A DNA stretch of 24,000 nucleotides from Magnetococcus sp. YQC-5 (lineage in GTDB: Bacteria; Pseudomonadota; Magnetococcia; Magnetococcales; Magnetaquicoccaceae): positions 1-24,000 of the forward strand of contig JAMOBH010000022.1 in assembly GCA_039908085.1 (NCBI GenBank), given 5' to 3'. The first letter of the stretch is position 1; every line of letters starts with the position of its first letter. The notes under the pieces are model-generated. The model worked only from the letters and a program-made list of their open reading frames with translations, made no database searches and was not told the origin of the DNA. Shown in pieces: positions 2,937-20,657 of the stretch. A program made the translations under genes and the position numbers.

Positions 2937-3542
2937 ATGACTGTTTTATTATCAGCATGTCACGATTGTGATGCCTTGTATCGGATTCCAGATGTGCCAT
3001 CTGGCAGTGTGGTGCGATGCTTGCGTTGTGGTGCCGAATTGTACCGGGACCGTGCGCACTCCCTGGATATCCCTTTGGCATGGACCTGCACCGGCATGAT
3101 TCTGTTTTTGATTGCCAACCTCAACCCACTGTTGATTTTGCAACTGGGGGGACGCATGCAGAGCAACACCTTGCTGGCAGGTGTCCAGGCGTTGGCTTAT
3201 GAAGGCATGTGGGATCTGGCCATCCTGGTATTTTGTACCAGTATTTTGTTTCCATTTCTGATCCTGGCCCTCCTGCTGTATGTTTTACTCCCCTTGAGGT
3301 TTGATTATATGCCGTGGCAACTGGCTCGAATCTTTCGTCTGGTGCAGGCCGTGACCCCCTGGGCCATGGTGGGAGTCTATGTGTTGGGCATTTTTGTGGC
3401 GTATGTCAAATTGATTTCCATGGCCACTGTGGTGCCCGGCATTGCGCTGTATGCCCTTTTTGCCTTGCTGCTGGTCACATCCGCTCTCCAAGCCACCCTG
3501 GATCCCCGGATGATTTGGTCTCGGATTCCGGTGTCACCATGA
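2937..3542 (+). CDS. pqiA: PqiA-family (paraquat-inducible protein A) integral membrane protein, first half-module
   Basis: The N-terminal zinc-ribbon is CHDCDALYRIPDVPSGSVVRCLRCGAEL, followed by multiple TM helices. The gene sits upstream of pqiB and pqiC. AAGAG lies about 10 nt upstream of the ATG. Confidence 0.85.
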   Translation: MTVLLSACHDCDALYRIPDVPSGSVVRCLRCGAELYRDRAHSLDIPLAWTCTGMILFLIANLNPLLILQLGGRMQSNTLLAGVQALAYEGMWDLAILVFCTSILFPFLILALLLYVLLPLRFDYMPWQLARIFRLVQAVTPWAMVGVYVLGIFVAYVKLISMATVVPGIALYALFALLLVTSALQATLDPRMIWSRIPVSP

Positions 3543-4180
3543 GCAGGAACGTACCCACTGCGGCTGGGGTCGGACTGATCGCCTGTCATGTTTGTGGTCT
3601 GCTCTCACCATCACACCAGGTGTTGCCCAAAACAAACAAGCGGTGTCCCAGATGTCAGGCTCCTTTGCATCTGCGCAAGCCAAACACGCTTTCCAGAACA
3701 TGGGCTTTGATATGGACCGCCATCATCCTGTATATTCCCGCCAACGCCTATCCGGTGATGACTGTCAGCAAACTGGGACGCGGCGAGCCGGATACGATTT
3801 TGAGTGGTGTCAAACATCTCATCGAAAGCGGCATGTGGCCCCTGGCCTTGCTGGTTTTTGTCGCCAGTATCGTGGTTCCTGTCATGAAGATCGGTGTTTT
3901 GATTTACTTGCTGATCACGGTGCAACGGCGTTCCAGGCAGCGATGTCGAGACCGAACGGCTCTTTATCGCCTGTTGGAGGCGTTTGGCCATTGGTCCATG
4001 GTAGACATTTTTCTGGTATCGATTCTGGCGGCCCTGGTTGATTTTGGTACACTGGCTACAATCAAGCCGAATATCGGGGCTTCATTTTTTGCGGCTGTTG
4101 TGGTTGCAACCCTGTTTGCGGCCCGAAGTTTTGATCCAAGAGTCATCTGGGATGTCATGGACGAGGAGCAGGCATCATGA
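3539..4180 (+). CDS. pqiA: PqiA-family integral membrane protein, second half-module
   Basis: The internal start of ORF 3314..4180 is at ATG 3539, forming an ATGA overlap with the upstream stop. The second zinc-ribbon is CHVCGLLSPSHQVLPKTNKRCPRCQAPL, followed by the PqiA-like stretch YIPANAYPVMTV and TM helices. There is another ATGA overlap with pqiB at 4177-4180. Confidence 0.85.
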   Translation: MSRNVPTAAGVGLIACHVCGLLSPSHQVLPKTNKRCPRCQAPLHLRKPNTLSRTWALIWTAIILYIPANAYPVMTVSKLGRGEPDTILSGVKHLIESGMWPLALLVFVASIVVPVMKIGVLIYLLITVQRRSRQRCRDRTALYRLLEAFGHWSMVDIFLVSILAALVDFGTLATIKPNIGASFFAAVVVATLFAARSFDPRVIWDVMDEEQAS

Positions 4181-5970: not shown

Positions 5971-6067
5971 CCTTTTTTCCAATCAAAAATTTAAAAAAAA
6001 AGGGTGGAGGGGTCTGGGGAGGCCGTGAGCCGCCTCCCCAGGAAGTTTCTCCCAAGGAGGGTTTTGA
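5971..6067 (+). repeat. Palindromic intergenic element, copy 3 (degenerate/hybrid arm) inside the pqiB-pqiC junction
   Basis: A9 (5993-6001) is followed by GGGTGGAGGGGT, then a 10-bp-stem hairpin CTGGGGAGGC...GCCTCCCCAG (6014-6041), then GAAGTTT. Further on is CCCAAGGAGGGTTTTG, reminiscent of the CCCCAAGGTTTTG terminus. A residual T-run lies at 5973-5978. Confidence 0.7.
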
Positions 6068-6179: not shown

Positions 6180-6752
6180 ATGGCTCTGTTTTTGACCGCC
6201 TGCCCAGGACAACCCTCGCCACCAACCCGTTTTTTTCTGTTGACTTCGCTGGTTCAGCCTCCACAGACCCGGGTGCAGCAGGCTGGACAGGGTCTGGTGG
6301 TGGAACTTGAACCTGTGGAAATTCCTCAGTATCTCAATCGTCCAGAGATGGTGACCCGGACCGGAGGGAATCGTTTGGGTCTGAACCGGATGGCGCAATG
6401 GGCCGGGGATCTCAAGGAGGATATTGGTCGCGTCCTGATGGAAAACCTTGCGCGTCTTTTGCCTTCGGAACGGGTGATGATCTTGCCCAAGCGTAGCAAT
6501 GAGGTTGCGAATTTTCGTGTGGCTGCGAGTATGAACCGTTTCGAACCGGATGCCACGGGACAAGTGATTCTGGATGCCCGATGGACTTTGTTCGATGGCA
6601 AGGGGAAACAACTTTTCACTCGTCATTCTCATATCATCACGCAAGCCTCCAACCCTGAGGAATATGAATCATTGGCTGAGGCAATGAGTAAGGCGTTGGA
6701 TATATGGAGTCGTGAAATGAGTGATACAATCAAATCCACCCCATCCCGATAA
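6180..6752 (+). CDS. pqiC: PqiC (YmbA/DUF330-type) transport-auxiliary outer-membrane lipoprotein
   Basis: The lipoprotein signal is ...RHGFLAVSWILMALFLTAC. Family-typical stretches are VEIPQYLNRPEMV, AQWAGDL and ARWTLF. The start is uncertain: candidates are TTG 6159, GTG 6165 and ATG 6180. The ORF is also open back to ATG 5925, which has a strong SD (see findings). Confidence 0.85.
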   Translation: MALFLTACPGQPSPPTRFFLLTSLVQPPQTRVQQAGQGLVVELEPVEIPQYLNRPEMVTRTGGNRLGLNRMAQWAGDLKEDIGRVLMENLARLLPSERVMILPKRSNEVANFRVAASMNRFEPDATGQVILDARWTLFDGKGKQLFTRHSHIITQASNPEEYESLAEAMSKALDIWSREMSDTIKSTPSR

Positions 6753-6896
6753 AAAATCCTTATTGCGGTTTTTCCAGTGTTCAAGTTTTTTTAAAATCAT
6801 TAAAAAAAAAGAGGGGGTTTGGGGGATTCTTCCCCCAAGGTTTTGCCTTTGATTTTTTTCTTTTGCCTTTGACTTTTTTGCTTTTGCCTTTTTGCC
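6753..6896 (-). repeat. Palindromic intergenic element, copy 4 (inverted; one arm decayed, other arm followed by a ~20-nt tandem repeat)
   Basis: The decayed arm is AAAATCCTTATTGCGGT... (6753-6785). It is followed by T7, AAAATCATT, A9 (6802-6810) and GAGGGGGTTTGGGGGATTCTTCCCCCAAGGTTTTGCC, with a hairpin at 6819-6838. Next come TTTTGCCTTTGATTTTTTTC, TTTTGCCTTTGACTTTTTTGC and TTTTGCCTTTTTGCC (6841-6896). Confidence 0.8.
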
Positions 6897-8603: not shown

Positions 8604-8710
8604 ATGAGGGCTTTCGTTTGTGTTGAAGGCTAAGACAAAGTTGTTCCATGTCTTTCTGGTATCCATTTCCAATCAAAATCTGTCATCACGGAACATACTT
8701 GGAGAAGAGC

Positions 8711-9118
8711 ATGGCTGTTAAAGAAAAAGTTCCTCAGGAACGCAAAAATCGACGGATGACCGCATATAATCCATCTGGAAATCCATTGTTGTGGTGTAAA
8801 TATGTTGGTTATTTGTTTCTCGGTATGAGTCTCTATTTTGTGGATCTGGCCAAACCACCAGGCAAGACTTTTTTTCACAGGATCATGGATCCCGGTATTG
8901 AAAAGCAGTGGGATCTCGATGTGATGACCCTCTCTTGGTTTTTTTTGTGGTTGGCTCTCTTGGTGGGCATCGGTGGCTTGATATTGAATGCCTTACGCTT
9001 GCGTCGCAAAAATGATCATTTGAGCGTGGGATTGATCGTGTTGTTGCTTTTGGTTGTATTGGTTATGGCAAGAGTGCCATCCGGAAATTCCATCATGGTC
9101 TTCCTCTCCCATATTTAA
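8711..9118 (+). CDS. Small integral membrane protein (about 3 TM helices), function unknown
   Basis: The ORF runs 8648..9118. I prefer ATG 8711 because GGAG lies 7 nt upstream. Hydrophobic segments are YVGYLFLGMSLYFV, LSWFFLWLALLVGIGGLILNAL and VGLIVLLLLVVLVMA. I recognise no family. Confidence 0.5.
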   Translation: MAVKEKVPQERKNRRMTAYNPSGNPLLWCKYVGYLFLGMSLYFVDLAKPPGKTFFHRIMDPGIEKQWDLDVMTLSWFFLWLALLVGIGGLILNALRLRRKNDHLSVGLIVLLLLVVLVMARVPSGNSIMVFLSHI

Positions 9119-9123
9119 AAATC

Positions 9124-9260
9124 AAAGTCAAAAGCAAAACCCTGTGGGATGAATCCCCCAGACCCCCTCTTTTTTTTAATAATTTGTTATAAAATAAAAA
9201 AATAATAAAAAAAAAAGGGTGGGGGGGTTGGGGGGCGGTTCACCGCCCCCCAAGGTTTTT
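9124..9260 (+). repeat. Palindromic intergenic element, copy 5 (full)
   Basis: The left arm has a hairpin at 9142-9161 with one mismatch (T at 9145). It is followed by ACCCCCTC-T8, a 29-nt A/T core, A10, GGGTGGGGGGGTT and a right hairpin GGGGGGCGGTTCACCGCCCCCC (9230-9251), ending in AAGGTTTT. The copy fills the convergent gap 9119-9269. Confidence 0.95.
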
Positions 9261-9269
9261 TTATGAGGT

Positions 9270-11183
9270 TCAATTCGTGACAAAACGGCCTTGTATCGCG
9301 TGTCCAGAGACGTGAGTTCCACTTGGGAGCAGGTTGTTCAGGCTCGAAGTCCCCACAAATCCCAAATCAATATCACCAAGGCCCAGTTCAAACTGATATG
9401 TGCTGGCCGGTTCAATTAAATAAGGTATATTATTGGCACCATATTTATTGCGAATGAGATCAATTAATTTATTGGCATCAACTTGCAGGGATCCCTGATT
9501 TGAACTGACGACCAGATTGGCATCCTGAGCCACATTGGAGAGCAGGGCATTGAGTATCAAACTGTTGGTTTTGGCTGTGAAAGACAAAATCGCACCAGCC
9601 GGAATGGAGATATCCACGGCGGATGGTATGACGTTGGGGGGGGAGTTTCCAGTCAAGGTGACCTGTACTGGAAGCAGTGTGGCATTGATCATCCTGCCAT
9701 GGGTCACATCGAAAAAATACAAAAACAGTTTGCTTTCGTAGATCTTTTTTTCTTCCAAGGTGCCTGTTCCATCTGCATTGGTATACCCCCGCAGGGCGCA
9801 TGAAATAACCAGATCCTTGTTATCCACGTTAGTGACGGTGTTGCGCAACTGACCGTTGGATTCATAAGAAACGGTTTGAGAACGAAGCGTGCCGATGGTG
9901 ATTTGATTGTTTGCACAAGCCAATCCCTTGATTGTCAAAATTTTGTTGACTTGGTTTTGACATGTCGTGTCGCACAAAGTCCCAAGTGCCGTGTTGATGT
10001 CACTTGGCGTGGAAGGGGGGGAGCCACTGTCACTCGGCTTGGAGGGTGAGAGTTGCGCCAAGGCATTCATGGCTGCGACCGGGTCAATGACACCGGATGT
10101 CTGAACGATTTTTTGGGCGTTGGAGATGGAGGCATCCGTAACCGCAGCGTGGATCCTGTTTTTGAAATCAGGCTTGTAATCTCCATGGAGTGGGTCCAGC
10201 AGCAGGGCCAAATCTTTTTTGGCCTGGATGGTGTTCTCCAGTATCGTCAACAAGTCTGCATTGGTTTGGGTCACGGTTTTGATCGCAATGGGCACCAATG
10301 CCAGCATCTGCTTTTTGACGTCAGGCGTTGTCACGGTTGGCGATAATGCGTTGGTTGCAAGATTCATGATATTGGTCATCGATGTGGCAGAAACAGCATT
10401 CTCAAGCAGCGATGCGCCATGCGTGACCATGGCAGCAGCAAGGGAACCCATAAAAGCAGTGGCCTGTTCCGTATCCAACTTTTTGGCTGTGATGCTGGTA
10501 TACATCCGAACCAATGCCAGATACGTTTGAGATACAACAGTATTGAGTTTGGCCACTTGAGCCACCATGACTTGATCGGCTCCATCTGTTTTGCCAAACG
10601 GATGGATTCTGCTCACATCTGTCAGTTTTTTCGATCTGTCGCCAAACAGTATCTGCATCAATTCGGACTGTTGATTGGCAGGGGTCAAGGCGATAATGGT
10701 GGTCAACGGGCTGATATGGGATGGAAATGCCTCTGTCGGAGCCGGTCCCAACAAGGTCATTTGCGGGTCTTGGCCGGTCAAGGTGTCCAAGGTCGAACCG
10801 GTATTGCTCGAAGAGGCTTCGATTTGATCGCATTGGAGTGCTGCGTCGTAAGCGAATTGACCTTCAGCAGAGGTGATTGACTGGTTGTTCTTGATGTTGA
10901 CAATATTGACTTTTTTGTTGCCAGTAATGCATTGAATAAAAGCCCCTGCGATCCAGCCATCGACTACACTGCCATTCAACTGGCCAGGTACGGATGGAGG
11001 ATTGGATGAAGTGCTATTATTGTTTGCAACAGCCAAAGTGTCTGTGCTGGGAGCGGAAGTGGCCTTGTGACTGCTGCTGCCTCCACCGCATGCCACAGTG
11101 CCAAATACTAAAGCCACCGCACTGGTCATCGCCAACAGGGGGGATCCCTGGGAGAGGTTGGAGAGACGGCACAATTTTCGCAT
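9270..11183 (-). CDS. Large secreted protein / probable lipoprotein, function unknown
   Basis: The ORF runs 9270..11201 with a TTG start. I prefer ATG 11183, which has GGAG upstream. The signal peptide is MRKLCRLSNLSQGSPLLAMTSAVALVFGTVAC followed by GGGSSS. The protein is Ser/Thr/Asn-rich, and I recognise no conserved catalytic motifs. Confidence 0.7.
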   Translation of the reverse strand: MRKLCRLSNLSQGSPLLAMTSAVALVFGTVACGGGSSSHKATSAPSTDTLAVANNNSTSSNPPSVPGQLNGSVVDGWIAGAFIQCITGNKKVNIVNIKNNQSITSAEGQFAYDAALQCDQIEASSSNTGSTLDTLTGQDPQMTLLGPAPTEAFPSHISPLTTIIALTPANQQSELMQILFGDRSKKLTDVSRIHPFGKTDGADQVMVAQVAKLNTVVSQTYLALVRMYTSITAKKLDTEQATAFMGSLAAAMVTHGASLLENAVSATSMTNIMNLATNALSPTVTTPDVKKQMLALVPIAIKTVTQTNADLLTILENTIQAKKDLALLLDPLHGDYKPDFKNRIHAAVTDASISNAQKIVQTSGVIDPVAAMNALAQLSPSKPSDSGSPPSTPSDINTALGTLCDTTCQNQVNKILTIKGLACANNQITIGTLRSQTVSYESNGQLRNTVTNVDNKDLVISCALRGYTNADGTGTLEEKKIYESKLFLYFFDVTHGRMINATLLPVQVTLTGNSPPNVIPSAVDISIPAGAILSFTAKTNSLILNALLSNVAQDANLVVSSNQGSLQVDANKLIDLIRNKYGANNIPYLIEPASTYQFELGLGDIDLGFVGTSSLNNLLPSGTHVSGHAIQGRFVTN

Positions 11184-11437
11184 TTTTTCAGCACTCCACA
11201 AACAAGAATAACATCAATCCGCCAGAGGTCGCATGTATGGCATACCTGCATATTAAGCCATTTGACGGACTCTGTCCATCATTCATACCTGTCTGAGTTG
11301 GGGCTTAAGCTTTCATTATGGCGTATATTTTGCATGCCGTATAATGATATCCGCATCAACTCAGCAAATATTCGACTGCACGTATCTATCATCATACAAA
11401 AAAACGAGGGAGGAGCCCTTGGGGGCAGGTAAACATC

Positions 11438-11647
11438 ATGACAACTCTGGAACAGTTGAACGCATTAAGGGAAGAAAAAAAAGCAATCAAGGCCCAATTG
11501 GATCAAACCAAAAAGGCCATCAAACATTCGAGAAAATCGCTCAAATGTGAAAAAAAAGTCTCGCGCGCTGAAGAGAAACTGGCCCAAAAAAAGCAAAAAC
11601 TGGCCAAAAAAATGAGCGACCAAGGCAGCATTGAACCAGCAGAATAA
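11438..11647 (+). CDS. Small Lys-rich coiled-coil-like protein (69 aa), hypothetical
   Basis: This is an ATG ORF with purine-rich sequence upstream (GGGAGGAG...GGCAGG). The composition is highly charged and heptad-like (EEKKAIKAQLDQTKKAIK...). Its stop abuts the left arm of element copy 6. The A-rich DNA could give this ORF by chance. Confidence 0.4.
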   Translation: MTTLEQLNALREEKKAIKAQLDQTKKAIKHSRKSLKCEKKVSRAEEKLAQKKQKLAKKMSDQGSIEPAE

Positions 11648-11800
11648 AAGCAAAATATTTTTCTGGCAAAGAGAAAAGTCAAAAGCAAAACCCCGGGGGA
11701 TGAATCCCCCAGACCCCCTCTTTTTTTTTAATAATTTAAAAAAAATTAAAAAAAAAGGGTGGGGGGGTTGGGGGGCGGTTCACCGCCCCCCAAGGTTTTG
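11648..11800 (+). repeat. Palindromic intergenic element, copy 6 (full)
   Basis: The left extension is AAGCAAAA...GGCAAAGAGAAAAGTCAAAAGCAAAACC. The left hairpin core lies at 11695-11710, followed by ACCCCCTC-T9, the core AATAATTTAAAAAAAATT and A9. Then come GGGTGGGGGGGTT, the right hairpin (11770-11791) and AAGGTTTTG. The copy fills the convergent gap 11648-11802. Confidence 0.95.
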
Positions 11801-11802
11801 GA

Positions 11803-12768
11803 CTACGGAATGTCCAGGCCTGCCTTGCGTAACAACTCGATCAAAAGGGTGGTTGAGTGTTCGAGTTGTTCGATGCCATTTTTGAACTCTTTTTTCAAGG
11901 CGTTTTCTTCAGCCTTGCCCCGCAAGTCACGTGCCTCGGCGATTTGAGTGGAACTCTCATTGCCAATCCCCTGGGAGTTCAATCCCTGTTCCAATAACAT
12001 TTGAAAGACATTGTTGCGACCCAATTCATAGATATATTCGGCTTCCGGGGTGGCAAAGTTCAAGGTCTGATAGAGCGTTTCTCCCTTGCGCAATTGAATC
12101 AGCGCGTCCTGGACCTTGTTGTAAGCCCGATCCAACAAAGATACCCCCTCATTGATCTGGAATTTGTTGAGGAACTGTTGGGATTGATTGAGCATGGCGC
12201 GGATTTCACTGCTGGTTTGCTTGCCCGGTTCGCCCAATTTCTTTTCTTCGGCGATGCGATCATAGGCTTCAAGCATGGACCAGGCACTTTTCATGCGGGT
12301 CTGGTAATCGTGGGTGTGACCCTGGCCAATGGACCCTGATCCGGGTGGTCTGGATTGCAGAGGGGCGCGATTGAAAGAGAACGGGGATTGGACCTCTGGC
12401 ATGCGAGGCGTTCCGAGTCCGGGAAAAGCTTGGACATGACCTGCGCCATTATCCAGTTTGGCCTTGATTTCTTTGATTTCGCCGTTGCGTTGTACAGAAA
12501 GGGTTACCTCGGAACCAGGATTGAGGCGATAGATTTCCATGGAAAATTGGCTAACATTGAACAATTCATGATCATTCAAGCGCAGGATGATATCCCCGCG
12601 CAGCAAACCGGATTTGTCTGCTGGGCTGTCTTTGATGATATCGCCTACCTGAACACCTCGTGGTTGTTCCGGATGAACGCCCAACCAACCACCAGCAGCA
12701 TGCGTTGGTTGGATGGAGCCAAGCATGATCGCAGAGGCAAGAGCCAGCAGGGTTATGGATTTTTTCAT
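11803..12768 (-). CDS. Periplasmic PDZ-domain protein with a helical C-terminal region
   Basis: The signal peptide is MKKSITLLALASAIMLGSIQPTHA. The PDZ signature is GVQVGDIIKDSPADKSGLLRGDIILRLNDHELFNVSQF...GSEVTLSVQRNGE. AGGA lies 10 nt upstream of the ATG. Confidence 0.8.
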   Translation of the reverse strand: MKKSITLLALASAIMLGSIQPTHAAGGWLGVHPEQPRGVQVGDIIKDSPADKSGLLRGDIILRLNDHELFNVSQFSMEIYRLNPGSEVTLSVQRNGEIKEIKAKLDNGAGHVQAFPGLGTPRMPEVQSPFSFNRAPLQSRPPGSGSIGQGHTHDYQTRMKSAWSMLEAYDRIAEEKKLGEPGKQTSSEIRAMLNQSQQFLNKFQINEGVSLLDRAYNKVQDALIQLRKGETLYQTLNFATPEAEYIYELGRNNVFQMLLEQGLNSQGIGNESSTQIAEARDLRGKAEENALKKEFKNGIEQLEHSTTLLIELLRKAGLDIP

Positions 12769-15070: not shown

Positions 15071-15225
15071 AAAAGTCAACAGCAAAACCCTGGGGGATGA
15101 ATCCCCCAGACCCCCTCTTTTTTTTTAATATTTAAAAACAAAAAATTAAAAAATTAAAAAATTAAAAAATTAAAAAAAAAGGGTGGGGGGTATTGGGGGG
15201 CGGTTCACCGCCCCCCAAGGTCTTG
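15071..15225 (+). repeat. Palindromic intergenic element, copy 7 (full, expanded A/T core)
   Basis: The left hairpin is CTGGGGGATGAATCCCCCAG (15090-15109), followed by ACCCCCTC-T9. The core contains 4 perfect tandem AAAAAATT units (15140-15171) followed by A9. Then come GGGTGGGGGGTATT, the right hairpin (15195-15216) and AAGGTCTTG. Confidence 0.95.
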
Positions 15226-15235
15226 ATCAAACACT

Positions 15236-15643
15236 TCACCCGCCAAAGATCAATCCGCGCAACGTTTTGAGGGGATGGTGTAAAATGTCGTCCAGCAGTG
15301 TGCGATTCAAGAGTCTGTATTCAATCAACGTCAGAAGAAAAATGAGGTCTTTGCTCTCCTGTTTGAGATTTTCCAGCAACAGGTCTGCCTCGACAAATTT
15401 ATTTTGTCCAAACAACGCCACCATGGATTCCGCAGAGAGATGAAAGGCGCGGTGTTGTTTTTCCAACTGGGCCATCTCTGGAAATTCGCCATATTTTTTG
15501 TGACCAACCGTATACAGCCATCTGCCCAATTCGCAGGTGTCATGCGTATGCAGAATCAAATCGGTTCGGCCTTTCAAAATGGTGGCTTCGAGTGTCAATA
15601 CCCACTGGAGGTGAACCAAGCGAGCCACGGAAAGGTCAATCAT
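15236..15643 (-). CDS. Stand-alone CZB (chemoreceptor zinc-binding) domain protein
   Basis: The CZB motif is HLQW...CELGRWLY...HRAFH in a 135-aa protein. A strong SD (AAGGAGA) lies 5 nt upstream of ATG 15643. Confidence 0.8.
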   Translation of the reverse strand: MIDLSVARLVHLQWVLTLEATILKGRTDLILHTHDTCELGRWLYTVGHKKYGEFPEMAQLEKQHRAFHLSAESMVALFGQNKFVEADLLLENLKQESKDLIFLLTLIEYRLLNRTLLDDILHHPLKTLRGLIFGG

Positions 15644-17795: not shown

Positions 17796-17843
17796 TCGCT
17801 TGACCCGTTTGACCCGTTTGATGAAACAGGCGACCGGATTTCC

Positions 17844-18740
17844 TTAACTTGATTGATCCGATTTTTTTTCATCCACAACATCCTGCGTACAAGCAGGAGT
17901 CAAACGACGCGCCAGAGCCATCCTGTAAAGTTCGGTGGCGGGCAGTCCGGTTTGGGGAGCCAGATACCGGGTGGCATCCCGCATGCTCATGCCTCCGGCC
18001 AAGGCCGCATCCAGCATCTCGCCGGCCTGCTCCAACGACAGAGGCGTCCATGTTTTCCCCTCCAGAATGACCACAATCTCACCTCGTACCCGCTCCACCT
18101 GCAACCGCTCGGCTATTTCCAGCAACGTTCCTCGATACATGGTCTCAAACATTTTGGTCAATTCCCGCGCCACCACCACCGAGCGCATCCCGGCACCCGT
18201 CTCCACCAGATCAGCCAAGGTCGCTGACAATCGTTGCGGGGACTCGAAAAAAGCCACAGTCCGATCTTCTTGCACCATGGATTCCAAACGCCGACGTCGT
18301 TCCACTCCCTTGCGTGGCAAAAATCCCTCGAAGACAAATCGATCACAAACAAATCCACTCCCGGACAAGGCCGTCGTGATCGCCGATGCCCCAGGCAATG
18401 CCTCCACCTTGACCATCTCCGACGCAGCCCGGATCAAAGGCAATCCAGGATCGCTGATCCCAGGTGTCCCGGCATCAGAAACAAGTGCCATAACAACACC
18501 TTGTGCCAATTCATCCAACAATCCCGGCAGCAATCGCATGGCATTGTGATCATCAAAATGTGTCACAGGCGTCCGTACTCCATAATGATCACACAGTATC
18601 CGCGTGCGTCGGGTATCCTCGGCCAAAATGCGATCCACCTCATGGAGAAGACGAACTCCACGATAGGTCATATCTTCCAGGTTGCCGATCGGTGTCGGAA
18701 TGATGTATAATTTTCCAAGTGAAGTTGCATGCTCTTTCAT
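17844..18740 (-). CDS. rsmI: 16S rRNA (cytidine1402-2'-O)-methyltransferase RsmI
   Basis: GKLYIIPTPIGNLEDMTYRGVRLLHEVDRILAEDTRRT is the RsmI N-terminal signature. The start is placed at ATG 18740, which gives an N-terminal length like E. coli RsmI. The ORF extends to ATG 18779. Confidence 0.9.
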   Translation of the reverse strand: MKEHATSLGKLYIIPTPIGNLEDMTYRGVRLLHEVDRILAEDTRRTRILCDHYGVRTPVTHFDDHNAMRLLPGLLDELAQGVVMALVSDAGTPGISDPGLPLIRAASEMVKVEALPGASAITTALSGSGFVCDRFVFEGFLPRKGVERRRRLESMVQEDRTVAFFESPQRLSATLADLVETGAGMRSVVVARELTKMFETMYRGTLLEIAERLQVERVRGEIVVILEGKTWTPLSLEQAGEMLDAALAGGMSMRDATRYLAPQTGLPATELYRMALARRLTPACTQDVVDEKKSDQSS

Positions 18741-18755
18741 GGATTTTTTCTCACT

Positions 18756-20657
18756 ATGATGGCTTCGATCACGACTCATGGACCGTTTTCTTCAAGCTTG
18801 TGGCGTGTCCATTGGGCATCCCTCATGCTTTGCGTCTGCGCATTGGCCTGGATGCCTGCTCTGGCGGTCGCCGGGGACTCTACTGTCCCACACTCGCAAA
18901 AGACCGGCCATGACCAGAATTCCAATCAGATCGGCACGATCTCTCCTGCCCGGATCGTGCCCCTGGATCCATCGGATACACAATCCCCCTGGCAAAGCCT
19001 GATCAATGACTTTCTGCAAGATTCCAGGCACCATTCCTCCAGGAGCTACTTGCAACGAACACCTCCCACACCCTCGGCTCCTGATCAGATCCGTGAACTC
19101 TTTCTTGCATTGGCACCGTTGTCAAGGGATCAACTCAAAACCCTGCTCGACCGCCAACCCCCTTCTTCCGCACTGCTTCCATTCATCCATCTGGTGCTGG
19201 GTGATCGCGCCGCAGCCGATGGCGAAGAAAAAGAAGCCCATCTCCACTGGCAGAAAGCTTCCCTCTCCACCCTGGTCAATACCGAAGCCATGCTCCGTCT
19301 GGCCAATGACGCCAATCCCAAAGATTCCTTCGTGGCCGGTCTGATGATTCCATTAAGCGGTGCTTCAGCCTCCATGGGGACCAACCTCATCATGGCCGCC
19401 AGAAAAGCCCTGGCCGATTATCGCGATGTCAACATCCACCTCGAAGTCGCTGACAGCGGGGGGTCCGCTGCATCAGCCCAGGCCGCCGTGAAAAATCTCA
19501 TCGCACGCGGCAGCAAAATCATCATCGGTCCCATTTTTCACCCCGAAGCCATCGCCGCTGCCAAAACCGCCGCTGCCCATAACATCCCCATCATGCCCTT
19601 GAATCCCAGGCAGGAAATCCTCGCCGCTGGAGGGGCGGTCTATTTGAATGCCTTTCAACCCGACTCCCAGGCCCGGATCATGGCCCGCCATGCCTTCAAG
19701 GATGCCGGTTTGCGTCGTGTCGCCATCCTGGCCGCAGATACGGATTATGGCCAACTCCAGGCCCAAACCTTTATCGATGAATTCATGGCTCTGGGGGGCG
19801 AGATCACCCATTCCGTCCTCTTCCCGGAACAGGAGACCGATTTTTCCACAGCCATCAAGATGCTGGTGCATCTGGATCCGGATGCTGTCAAGGCCCGTTT
19901 GGCCGCTCCCAAAACCGGTGCCCTGGATCCCATGGATCGTCCAGCACCGCGCTCAGAAAAAAATCTGGAACCCCTGGTTGATTTCGAGGCCCTCTTTTTG
20001 CCCACTACAGCCAAACAGGCCAGACAAATCGCTTCACAAGCCTCCTTGTTCAATATTCGTTCACCTGGAATCGCCCTGTTGGGGGCTTCGCTCTGGAACC
20101 GTCCCGAACTCCTGGAAGAGACCGATTTTCTCCTGGGTGGAACCTTTTGCGATATCAACCAAACGGTCCGGGATCATTTCAATGCCATCTGTCAAAAAAT
20201 ACTCGGCGTGACCCCCATTCCCGCACTCTCCATGTTGACTTATGACAGCATCGTCATTCTTGCCCAACTGTTGCGTGATCAACGATTGGGCGGGGTCGAA
20301 TGGCATCAGGGCTTTACCAGATCCACAGGCTTTTATGGCAGTGCCGGACCTGTCCGTTTCTTGACCAACGGTGTTAGTGAACGTCTTTATCATCTTTATC
20401 AGATCGAGGAGAAAAGAACCGTGTTTCTCCCCGCACCACCGCAAAATGGTGCCCCTGATCCCAATCGTCGTCCATCCAGGGCAGATGCGCCAGATAATAA
20501 AACTGAGCAGGATGTCATTAAAAATGATTGGACCTCCCCTTCAACCCCGACTTCTGATAATACACAGCAGGATTCCATTCAAAATGATTGGACTCCGAAT
20601 TCAACCCCAGCGTCTGAAGATGATTCAGGCGTGGGAACTCCCGTTACTTCACAGTGA
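18756..20657 (+). CDS. lpoA: LpoA/LppC-like penicillin-binding-protein activator (type-1 periplasmic binding fold) with a repetitive C-terminal tail
   Basis: The PBP-type-1 region is GLMIPLSGASASMGTNLIMAARKALADY...GSKIIIGPIFHPEAIAAAKTAAAHNIPIMPLN. The divergent arrangement with rsmI matches the yraL/yraM synteny of gammaproteobacteria. The start is uncertain (ATG 18729, 18756, 18759 or 18825). Confidence 0.7.
   Translation: MMASITTHGPFSSSLWRVHWASLMLCVCALAWMPALAVAGDSTVPHSQKTGHDQNSNQIGTISPARIVPLDPSDTQSPWQSLINDFLQDSRHHSSRSYLQRTPPTPSAPDQIRELFLALAPLSRDQLKTLLDRQPPSSALLPFIHLVLGDRAAADGEEKEAHLHWQKASLSTLVNTEAMLRLANDANPKDSFVAGLMIPLSGASASMGTNLIMAARKALADYRDVNIHLEVADSGGSAASAQAAVKNLIARGSKIIIGPIFHPEAIAAAKTAAAHNIPIMPLNPRQEILAAGGAVYLNAFQPDSQARIMARHAFKDAGLRRVAILAADTDYGQLQAQTFIDEFMALGGEITHSVLFPEQETDFSTAIKMLVHLDPDAVKARLAAPKTGALDPMDRPAPRSEKNLEPLVDFEALFLPTTAKQARQIASQASLFNIRSPGIALLGASLWNRPELLEETDFLLGGTFCDINQTVRDHFNAICQKILGVTPIPALSMLTYDSIVILAQLLRDQRLGGVEWHQGFTRSTGFYGSAGPVRFLTNGVSERLYHLYQIEEKRTVFLPAPPQNGAPDPNRRPSRADAPDNKTEQDVIKNDWTSPSTPTSDNTQQDSIQNDWTPNSTPASEDDSGVGTPVTSQ

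Follow-up and report, generated by a model that had tools for sequence, protein, structure and literature searches.

Dispersed repeats that lie near the 3' ends of genes and may act as transcription terminators are already documented in other bacteria. In Streptococcus pneumoniae, for example, the SPRITE repeat resembles, and has perhaps been co-opted as, a Rho-independent terminator (PMC3049150). Its termini are AAAA/TTTT, it is the repeat with the strongest enrichment between convergent genes, it is found near 3' termini, and neither a duplication nor a partner insertion sequence (IS) is known for it; its GC content is 28%, and it is almost wholly absent outside S. pneumoniae and S. mitis (PMC3049150). 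Members of the REP/BIME/REPIN group are palindromes tagged by GTAG or CGTC (Di Nocera et al. 2013, PMC3733652; Bertels and Rainey 2011, PMC3116915). In REPs, this tag is a tetranucleotide that stays unpaired at one side of the palindrome, and REPs are found close to the stop codons of both open reading frames (ORFs) of a convergent pair (PMC3733652). The Correia elements (CREE/NEMIS) of Neisseria, together with ERIC, RUP and Nezha, are bacterial miniature inverted-repeat transposable elements (MITEs) (Delihas 2011, PMC3184786). Here, we describe a structured non-coding repeat in a 24,000-nt stretch of Magnetococcus sp. YQC-5 (contig JAMOBH010000022.1, positions 1 to 24,000; the whole stretch is referred to below as the window). 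A previous sequence-only reading of the window had suggested that this element might be a portable bidirectional terminator cassette, set flush against the stop codons of convergent genes at 9119-9269 and 11648-11802. Our analyses favor, on balance, a Magnetococcales-specific family of REP/BIME/RIME/SPRITE-like non-coding repeats that are tolerated and have probably been co-opted as intrinsic terminators. Taken separately, we have little doubt that this is a dispersed REP/SPRITE-like repeat family, whereas the chances that its exits truly terminate transcription, as judged from their sequence, are about even.

The basic unit of the family is a left arm made of an A-rich heptamer tail (GCAAAA/GTCAAAA type), AAAACC, hairpin 1 (CTGGGGG-ATGAAT-CCCCCAG), the spacer ACCCCCTC and a run of T8-9. 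Two genomes, that of the window and that of Magnetococcus sp. DMHC-6, have a right arm attached to this left arm; the right arm consists of A9, GGGTGGGGGGG, hairpin 2 (TTGGGGGGCGG-TTCA-CCGCCCCCCAA) and GGTTTT, and a variable A/T spacer separates the arms of the window copies. Hairpin 1 spans 20-22 nt and hairpin 2 spans 22-26 nt, the inner parts of the two arms are mutually 73-85% complementary, and the distinct sequence variants of the hairpin 1 stem include 6 that are compensatory and 5 that are broken. On either strand, full copies are predicted by ViennaRNA to fold into three hairpins closed by AAAACC/GGUUUU pairing (dG -59 to -70 kcal/mol), the middle hairpin being formed by the C-rich/U9 segment paired with the A9/G-rich segment.

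Repeat search and alignment of the window identified 7 copies or fragments in 24 kb, about 1 per 3.4 kb, and agreed with the sequence-only reading on where they lie. The full copy at 11648-11802 (+ strand) comprises an A-rich tail (11648-11674) and a left arm (11675-11730) with hairpin 1 at 11692-11713, the spacer ACCCCCTC at 11713-11720 and T9 at 11721-11729, followed by A9 (11748-11756), hairpin 2 (11768-11793) and the terminus GGTTTT (11794-11799). The full copy at 9119-9269 (+) fills a true convergent gap and is made up of a left arm (9124-9177) with one mismatch in hairpin 1 (CTGTGGG), an AT-rich spacer (9178-9206) and a right arm (9207-9259) in which hairpin 2 (9228-9253) is followed by GGTTTTTTTA. 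A third full copy, at 15071-15225 (+), lies between two minus-strand genes and consists of a left arm (15072-15127), an (AAAAAATT)n spacer (15128-15171) and a right arm (15172-15224), while a compact full copy at 2779-2897 is inverted (- strand; right arm 2779-2829, left arm 2838-2891) and occupies the divergent gap between an MCP chemoreceptor gene (-) and pqiA (+). Also inverted is a solo left arm at 6786-6895 (-), with a hidden Markov model (HMM) match at 6801-6856 and a T-rich heptamer tail at 6857-6895; on the + strand, it reads as hairpin 1 (6818-6839) and then a U-rich tail. The other two are fragments of right arms in + orientation. One is a degenerate variant at 5981-6050, between MlaD/pqiB-like and pqiC-like genes, with the structure A9-GGGTGGAGGGG-hairpin GGGGAGGCCGTGAGCCGCCTCCCC and a right-arm HMM match at 5993-6042 (E=1.4e-5). 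The other is a truncated right arm at 1-49, in which a run of about 43 C stands in place of hairpin 2 and is followed by CAAGGTTTT. The right terminus ...CCCCCCAAGGTTTT ends at 49, 9259, 11799 and 15225. Spacer and tail lengths vary from copy to copy, and some of these stretches are microsatellite-like, namely the (AAAAAATT)n spacer at 15128-15171 and the T-rich heptamers (TTTTGCC/TTTGACT) at 6857-6895.

The terminator-like signals of the element lie at its exits. RNA polymerase crossing a copy in either direction would meet a GC-rich hairpin on its way out and a U-rich tract immediately after it, so that the element could serve as an intrinsic terminator or attenuator for transcripts arriving from either side. 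The canonical pairing is hairpin 2 with GGUUUU(UUU) when read from left to right and hairpin 1 with GGUUUUGCUUUUGACUUU when read from right to left. A consensus scan of the first 20 kb of the window ranked element hairpins read toward their U-rich ends as all five of the strongest sites. Four of these are hairpin 1 exits read from right to left (11713-11692 and 15110-15089 on the - strand; 2853-2874 and 6818-6839 on the + strand, in the inverted copies; 9 pairs, tail GUUUUGCUUU...), and the fifth is a hairpin 2 exit read from left to right (9228-9253, +; 11 pairs, tail GGUUUUUUUA). The exit hairpins have a local dG of -17 to -27 kcal/mol, and at least 5 U are present in the 10 nt past hairpin 1, in the right-to-left reading, in 147 of 151 left arms. 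The window genes whose transcripts enter copies meet an exit in the right sense, i.e. motAB-ORF135 at 9228-9253, the pqiC-like gene at 6818-6839, the PDZ gene at 11713-11692 (-; tail GTTTTGCTTT) and the 15236-15643 gene at 15110-15089. The PDZ transcript would enter the 11648 copy through its right arm. Unlike these exits, the intra-operon pqi fragment at 5981-6050 has no U tract behind its hairpin. Together, these features suggest that copies have probably been co-opted as terminators after the motAB-ORF135, pqiABC, PDZ and 15236-15643 genes of the window.

The sequence-only reading had placed the signal elsewhere, proposing that the hairpin of the proximal arm and the central T8-9 run stop an incoming transcript inside the element. 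Each arm does carry a GC hairpin and, further on, a T8-9 run, so that this description holds literally, and in a palindromic left-arm relative at L008:706, with GAGGGGGTCTGGGGGAT/GAATCCCCCAGACCCCCTC, an A tract/T tract and a 15-bp stem, the same parts form what would be an ideal bidirectional terminator. In the element itself, however, the left arm has 8 nt (ACCCCCTC) and the right arm 11-13 nt (AACCCCCCCACCC) between its stem and its T run, and the C-rich spacer would leave an rC:dG-rich RNA-DNA hybrid at the expected release point. Intrinsic termination needs the U tract directly after the stem. When a GC-rich stem-loop with a U-rich tract within 0-2 nt is taken as the standard, the exit hairpins qualify and the proximal hairpin with its T9 at 8-13 nt does not; the consensus scan did not call the proximal sites, and solo left arms are mostly entered from the T-run side (43 vs 20 from the hairpin side). 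The proximal geometry is thus highly improbable, whereas a two-way terminator cassette with the geometry corrected to the exits is plausible from the sequence. Perfectly palindromic left-arm relatives occur at L008:706-741 and L030:6890-6922 (GAAAGAAAAGAGGGGGTCTGGGGGAT/GAATCCCCCAGACCCCCTCTTTTCTTTC), with the 15-bp stem directly flanked by an A tract and a T tract; judged by their sequence, they would be ideal bidirectional terminators and are possibly the ancestral form.

The gene context of the two gaps bears on what such a terminator would serve. The 9119 gap is truly convergent, because the ORF ending at 9118 is a real gene with orthologues: it is a conserved small membrane-protein gene (8648-9118, +) after motAB, its product, likely 135 aa in truth (ORF135), is 56-64% identical to orthologues sited after MotAB in other Magnetococcales, and 5 nt separate its TAA stop from the left arm of the copy. 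On the other side, a 643-aa putative lipoprotein gene (9270-11201, -) ends with a TGA (9270-9272) 10 nt from the right terminus. At 11648, the right terminus is 3 nt from the TAG (11803-11805) of the PDZ-domain gene (11803-12768, -), and the convergent partner assumed on the + strand is a 69-aa lysine-rich ORF (11438-11647) that is unsupported as a gene. This ORF has zero homologues among 5.8 billion proteins and is itself absent from that database, in which two other products of this 30,312-nt contig, the PDZ protein and ORF135, do occur; its coding score of 8.8 is marginal (cut-off 7). The 11648 copy therefore most likely lies between two minus-strand genes, the PDZ gene and then the 643-aa gene, and of the two gaps only that at 9119 is securely convergent, so that the idea of two convergent gaps wholly filled by the element survives for one of them. 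Similarly, the left arm adjoins a + strand stop at 9118 (5 nt) but not at 11647, where the conserved arm starts at about 11672-11675, 24-27 nt past the stop of the 69-aa ORF, and the A-rich GCAAAA-type tail alone extends back to 11648. The sequence-only reading was right about the minus-strand stops next to right termini, at 48-50 (overlapping), 9270-9272 (10 nt), 11803-11805 (3 nt) and 15236-15238 (10 nt; the TGA of the 15236-15643 gene, -), and about the inverted copy at 2779-2897, which sits in a divergent gap between the starts of the MCP gene (2492, -) and pqiA (2937, +).

Beyond the window, an exact 24-mer of the left arm was searched in a genome collection and found at 79 loci or more, the window itself not being among them. 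Among the matches listed, all are from metagenome-assembled genomes (MAGs) of Magnetococcales and represent 7 species (Magnetococcus sp. DMHC-6, nW5bin3, nARSLQbin1, DH2_bin6, nW5bin1, nMBPbin6 and HCHbin5), and two pattern scans gave 0 matches in viral contigs. HMMs built from the window arms gave 187 left-arm and 120 right-arm matches in 610 kb (window plus loci), essentially all intergenic; once overlaps were pruned, 258 matches formed 156 clusters, including 67 solo left arms, 51 left+right pairs and various chains. The arms of a pair are usually 7-10 nt apart, as in the 2779 copy, and right arms at E<=1e-3 were found in DMHC-6 and the window only. In DMHC-6, the conserved unit is about 190 nt long and has two extra outer modules, M0 (GAACATGATGCCCTGCGGGCAAAA) outside the left arm and M3 (GATTTTTATTTTTCCGATACAT) outside the right arm; units may run on directly from one to the next. 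The DH2_bin6 copies (for example, L030:4496-4600, L016:71-170 and L022:2708-2810) are a separate subfamily, in which another conserved module, of 48 nt (CAATAATTGGATATTCATGCTCGGCTCAGGAATCACCAAACAGCCTCT), is fused to the left arm, with AAAACAT heptamers ahead of it. The family appears to be undescribed, as judged by Rfam and by a literature search on Magnetococcales repeats, which found no description of such repeats. At gathering thresholds, Rfam 15 gave no match in the window and a single tRNA gene, off the element, in 14 loci, and a permissive Rfam search with one copy returned generic long-hairpin (microRNA-precursor-like) matches far below threshold.

A census of intergenic gaps in the window and 83 loci (654 kb, with a crude ORF caller and a repeat mask defined as bases matched at least 5 times in an all-against-all blastn) showed that repeat DNA is present in 32 of 71 convergent gaps (45%) and 13 of 83 divergent gaps (16%; Fisher odds ratio 4.4, p=8e-5). 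Co-directional gaps held repeat DNA in 75 of 340 cases (22%), or 75 of 161 (47%) when gaps of at least 60 nt are considered, so that the element is not specific to convergent pairs. Repeat edges that face a 3' end lie at a median of 14 nt from the end of the ORF (n=139), with the stop at or inside the repeat edge in 29 cases, as compared with a median of 48 nt for edges that face a 5' end (p=1e-11). Some ORFs even end within the element, at the TAA in ...GGAAAAATAA of M3 (4 cases) or the TGA in ...ATTGAAAAAAAA of solo left arms (about 8). Elements also begin 3-9 nt after tRNA-Phe (L003:4149-4224) and tRNA-Arg (L029:7558-7634) genes, where they are entered from the M3/right-arm side, and the association is therefore with the ends of transcription units rather than with translation stops as such. 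The nearness of arms to stops noted in the sequence-only reading is thus real and holds generally for 3' ends, although the edges are no closer than insertion into short gaps would bring them. In filled convergent gaps, the leftover unique DNA has a median of about 45 nt, against 44 nt for repeat-free convergent gaps (quartiles 6-74; Mann-Whitney p=0.18), and the residuals in the window, about 11 and 30 nt, fall within the range of the latter. Because this leftover equals the length of an empty gap, the flush position is what would be expected from insertion into short 3' gaps. It would reflect short 3' intergenic gaps together with selection against insertion near promoters, rather than a stop-codon-specific mechanism. 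Of the proposed bidirectional cassette, the terminator-like signals in both directions and the enrichment at 3' ends thus stand, but the proximal hairpin/T9 geometry, the specificity for convergent genes and the symmetry do not.

The same numbers would suit a purely selfish or neutral non-autonomous mobile sequence, found next to stops because insertions elsewhere were purged and 3' gaps are short. Such a sequence would leave as much unique DNA in filled convergent gaps as in empty ones, would occupy convergent and long co-directional gaps equally while being depleted from divergent ones, would lie at synteny breakpoints and, as a high-copy repeat, would break the contigs of several MAGs, all of which is seen here; the same case has been argued by Croucher et al. 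for the pneumococcal repeats (PMC3049150). Many contigs of nARSLQbin1 and nW5bin3 (L004, L009, L013, L018, L028, L042, L045 and L079) start or stop inside a left arm. What a selfish origin by itself does not account for is a 42-nt core that is identical despite 53-70% protein identity, which would need continuing constraint or activity, and the hairpin plus U-tract design kept at both exits. Nor does it account for a 40:9 orientation relative to transcription in DMHC-6 with no link to local GC skew, or for independent family members behind the same orthologous gene in different genomes. We therefore regard a purely selfish sequence as possible but unlikely, and prefer a tolerated repeat with co-opted terminators, in which copies spread by some copying mechanism and survive almost solely downstream of transcription units.

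A structure placed just after a stop codon might also act on the message. Under this post-transcriptional alternative, the 3' stem-loop would be a barrier that stabilizes the upstream mRNA and, at less than about 15 nt from the stop, hinders terminating ribosomes; the element would then adjust how strongly the upstream gene is expressed instead of ending its transcription. Liang, Rudd and Deutscher reportedly observed in 2015 that an E. coli REP close to a stop codon interferes with terminating ribosomes. The element forms very stable structures right after stops, and in the window hairpin 2 starts 3-10 nt past the stop. Between co-directional genes, many copies leave scant room for a separate promoter, and some ORFs end within the element (4 in M3 and about 8 at the TGA of ...ATTGAAAAAAAA), as described above. 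REPs are, in addition, both targets of and barriers for 3' exonucleases (PMC12320835). On the other hand, copies abut tRNA genes, where translation is irrelevant, and the conserved U-rich exits would be needless in a pure stabilizer, which makes this alternative improbable and leaves terminator co-option as the preferred role.

Searches started from the PDZ protein of the window gave no record in an exact look-up and one weak, irrelevant match in a metagenome scan, whereas homologues of the PDZ protein and ORF135 led to the orthologous loci L081-L087. In every genome examined, the 3' flank of the PDZ orthologue contains a family member or a related GC hairpin, and the downstream neighbor differs each time. 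For example, a solo left arm fills the whole 44-nt convergent gap in L081, an M0-R-M3-M0-L chain follows the gene in DMHC-6 (L071), and L082, L083 and L084 have the hairpins CCGGGGGGGCAATTCCCCGG, CCAGGGGCTGTTCGCCCCTGG+ACCCCCTC and CCAGGGGGATTATCCCCCTGG, respectively. On the other side, MotA-MotB-ORF135 is kept in L085-L087, where a putative structured leader comes next, then a 49-aa gene and then an ApbA gene in convergent orientation; the synteny with the window stops at the element. A conserved non-coding stretch of about 135 nt (L085:3415-3550, L086:2555-2695 and L087:3420-3558) runs from ORF135 to the gene for the 49-aa membrane peptide and has two hairpins, TTCTTGCTTGA...TCAAGCAGGAA and CAGGGTTTGGGGTGGCCCTG; from its sequence, it looks like a structured leader, and the window has the element in its place. 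At the 9119 and 11802 junctions of the window, the gene order of the relatives in L081-L087 (motA-motB-ORF135; PDZ gene) stops exactly at the element, so that the elements lie at rearrangement junctions and an empty site is not alignable in these loci. No partner IS was seen in L081-L087, and a tblastn search of the 610 kb with an E. coli RayT sequence gave no match (best E=0.25) to a RAYT, the Y1 transposase that accompanies REPs. At the 27 complete DMHC-6 copies, ..TTAA is loosely favored on the left side and NAA on the right side. Terminal pairing is limited to the 6 nt of AAAACC/GGTTTT, and no inverted repeat is evident between the two outer ends (GAACATGATG... / ...CCGATACAT) of the 190-nt form in DMHC-6.

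The element is also marked by polarity, strongest in DMHC-6, and by sequence conservation. Among the 51 left+right pairs, the right end points toward a gene 3' end in 33 of 47 informative cases, and in 35 of 47 the left end points toward a 5' end. Most often (22), a pair lies between two co-directional genes and is read from the right arm to the left arm, vs 8 that lie in a convergent gap. Left arms in co-directional gaps of DMHC-6 are oriented 40 vs 9 (binomial p=9e-6), and those of the other genomes 19 vs 15, which is not significant. The rule that the right end faces a stop and the left end the next start is kept by all window copies except on the left side of the 9119 copy. A replication-strand cause of the polarity was considered and set aside, as orientation showed no association with local GC skew in convergent and divergent gaps, in a test that was underpowered. 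The consensus of the 42-nt core (AAAACCCTGGGGGATGAATCCCCCAGACCCCCTCTTTTTTTT) is identical in 7 genomes, although the orthologous PDZ proteins are just 53-70% identical, and the sequence of the core, rather than pairing alone, is at least 90% conserved at every position in 127 copies, this apparent conservation being inflated by retrieval through the exact 24-mer. The L081 copy, which was found independently of the 24-mer, matches the core at 35 of 42 positions. It is the one left arm in the 44 kb fetched without reference to the element (L081-L084), so that element density must differ greatly between genomes.

From the sequences, a near-invariant core across diverged genomes and the DMHC-6 polarity hint at a sequence-specific partner. 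One form of this idea is that the invariant core (loop ATGAAT, spacer ACCCCCTC) is a recognition site bound by a dedicated protein, which might be a transposase (domesticated or as yet undiscovered), a factor acting on the nucleoid or in termination, or a receptor for DNA uptake (compare the Neisseria DUS pairs that double as terminators). The conservation of at least 90% per core position in 127 copies, the consensus shared by 7 genomes, the polarity in DMHC-6 and the extreme density in the window, about 1 per 3.4 kb, would all be in keeping with such a site. However, no candidate protein was found, as there was no transposase among the 10 genes bracketed by inverted arms and no match to the E. 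coli RayT sequence in the 610 kb; copies are essentially intergenic, unlike uptake sequences, and the exact 24-mer ascertainment inflates the conservation. A recognition site is thus a doubtful explanation. More far-reaching still, the 42-nt core and the cloverleaf-like fold might form an order-wide 'punctuation' module that is recognized by a dedicated Magnetococcales factor and sets polarity and transcript ends genome-wide. The factor might be, for instance, a transposase that has been domesticated, a protein for termination or processing, or an activity resembling that of RNase P/Z, and the polarity would run stop, right arm, left arm, next gene; we give this proposal very little credence.

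Several observations weigh against the interpretation that we favor, a mobile and tolerated repeat co-opted for termination. With regard to termination, activity at the exits is a reasonable reading of consensus geometry alone, and terminator-like sites across the whole window are not above expectation (33 vs 25.2 +/- 5.5 after shuffling). Individual exits are also imperfect: the mismatch in hairpin 1 of the 9119 copy makes for a weak right-to-left exit, and in the left-to-right direction the U tracts at the exits are poor in two copies, 11648 (GGUUUUGG) and 15071 (GGUCUUGA). The native convergent gap at 17796-17843 has no hairpin or T run at all, and a terminator is therefore not obligatory there. 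The 40:9 polarity in DMHC-6 is not explained by a symmetric terminator, and near-perfect conservation that includes loop and spacer exceeds the needs of a generic hairpin plus U tract. Enrichment at 3' ends would be equally expected of a tolerated selfish element, the census loci were chosen through the element itself and scored with a crude ORF caller, and 36 of the 79 loci listed come from one MAG. As for mobility, which we infer, no matching direct repeats indicative of a target-site duplication flank the 27 complete DMHC-6 copies, and Pfam scans of the 10 genes bracketed by inverted arms revealed ordinary genes and no transposase.

Among described repeats, SPRITE offers a close functional parallel. 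Like SPRITE, the element is interspersed, measures about 100 nt and has terminal inverted repeats that are very short (AAAA/TTTT in SPRITE, AAAACC/GGTTTT here) as well as a stable stem followed by a U-rich tract; both are enriched in convergent gaps and near the 3' ends of coding sequences, show no target duplication and no identified partner IS, and have been proposed as co-opted terminators. The two are unrelated in sequence and phylum, however, and SPRITE forms one 18-bp duplex and has about 30 copies per genome, whereas the element described here is rich in GC hairpins, of which it has 2-3, has terminator-like exits on both strands and is built of mosaic modules. It also occurs at a far higher density (7 in 24 kb) and is common to several genus-level lineages. 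Membership of the SPRITE family is implausible because SPRITE is AT-rich and nearly absent elsewhere, and the likeness is one of function and architecture only. As in the REP/BIME/REPIN group, the repeats are high-copy extragenic GC-rich palindromes, often in inverted pairs and in mosaics with other motifs, that lie between convergent or co-directional ORFs at less than 20 bp from 3' ends, sometimes provide the stop codon with their termini, and have termination and mRNA stabilization as proposed roles. The general features of a REP, i.e. an imperfect GC-rich palindrome of 20-40 bp, high-copy and extragenic, placed within 20 bp of 3' ends, were all found, and the mosaic build of the units resembles BIMEs. 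Unlike in REP pairs, however, the two hairpins differ in sequence rather than being one REP inverted, and there is a long A/T-run central hairpin. Since GTAG, CTAC, CGTC and GACG are all missing from the consensus of the left arm, right arm, M0 and M3, the family falls outside the GTAG/CGTC REP super-families.

The element also shares with Correia elements and other MITEs a length of about 100-160 nt, a non-coding nature and folding into long hairpins, and a further listed trait of this group is co-transcription with neighbor genes, whose expression can be affected. The terminal inverted repeats of Correia elements are 26 bp long, and these elements also have a TA target duplication, an IHF site and promoters that face outward; here, by contrast, the terminal repeats are about 6 nt, no duplication is visible and there is no convincing sigma-70 promoter. 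With no visible duplication and terminal repeats of just 6 nt, the element would probably not qualify as a MITE. RIMEs (Rhizobium-specific intergenic mosaic elements) are Alphaproteobacterial-type repeats of about 100-150 nt with two different large palindromes, and their sequence appears to be different from that of the element. Ju, Li and Liu are said to have described bidirectional intrinsic terminators between convergent genes in 2019; bioRxiv 10.1101/2022.10.23.513370 also bears on such terminators. An ordinary bidirectional terminator consists of one hairpin that is specific to its locus, with an A tract on one side and a T tract on the other. The element resembles such terminators in being a structure in convergent gaps with U-rich tracts on both strands, which could end both transcripts without antisense overlap, and differs from them in using two different hairpins for the two directions and in being, as a whole unit, a dispersed repeat.

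Against this background, the polarity and the cross-genus sequence identity are the only leads toward novelty. In practical terms, the family is very abundant in some magnetotactic cocci and explains the assembly breaks of MAGs at repeats, and the element marks synteny breakpoints and rearrangement; its annotation would avert spurious ORF calls, such as the 69-aa ORF, and over-extended gene starts. If the exits terminate transcription, much of the terminator repertoire of these genomes would be supplied by the element, and the family would join SPRITE and REP/BIME as one more independent example in which a dispersed repeat also serves as a terminator. The element might also serve as a compact two-way terminator part in genetic tools for magnetotactic bacteria.

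Other possible functions of the element were considered and rejected. A peptide encoded by the element, either as ATG TAT CGG... from M3 or as a 25-codon frame in the DH2_bin6 variant, is not credible, because the lengths of the G/C and A/T runs vary among copies. An outward sigma-70 promoter at the left or M0 end was not convincing when the consensus was viewed by eye, as a -10 box at fixed spacing is not consistent across copies; TTGACT is present in the left tail of window copies and was paired once with AATATT in a scan (11682-11654). An IHF site (WATCAANNNNTTR) was not seen by eye in the center of the element.

The genes around the copies encode, in addition to the products named above, PqiB(MlaD)/PqiC-like proteins and MotA/MotB. 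The MCP gene runs on the minus strand from a start at 2492 to a TAA stop at 48-50 that overlaps the terminus of the truncated right arm, and the pqiA gene, which carries a PqiA domain, starts at 2937 on the plus strand. The stop of the PqiC-like gene is at 6750-6752, and the solo left arm follows 34 nt further on. Two ORFs at 2937-3542 and 3314-4180 overlap in different frames and have one PqiA domain each, which may reflect a frameshift or an over-extended start of the second ORF. The C run at 1-43, with which the window opens, has one G, at position 7; either a G/C tract of the element has expanded there or the run is a homopolymer artefact of the assembly edge. Within a 642-aa ORF (18729-20657), a tandem repeat of a 60-nt unit at 20497-20616 (77% identity) is a coding repeat unrelated to the element. 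Finally, a perfect sigma-70 consensus (TTGACA, 17 nt, TATAAT) lies on the minus strand at 2535-2507, just upstream of the MCP start at 2492, and is thus positioned between the MCP gene and the inverted copy of the element.

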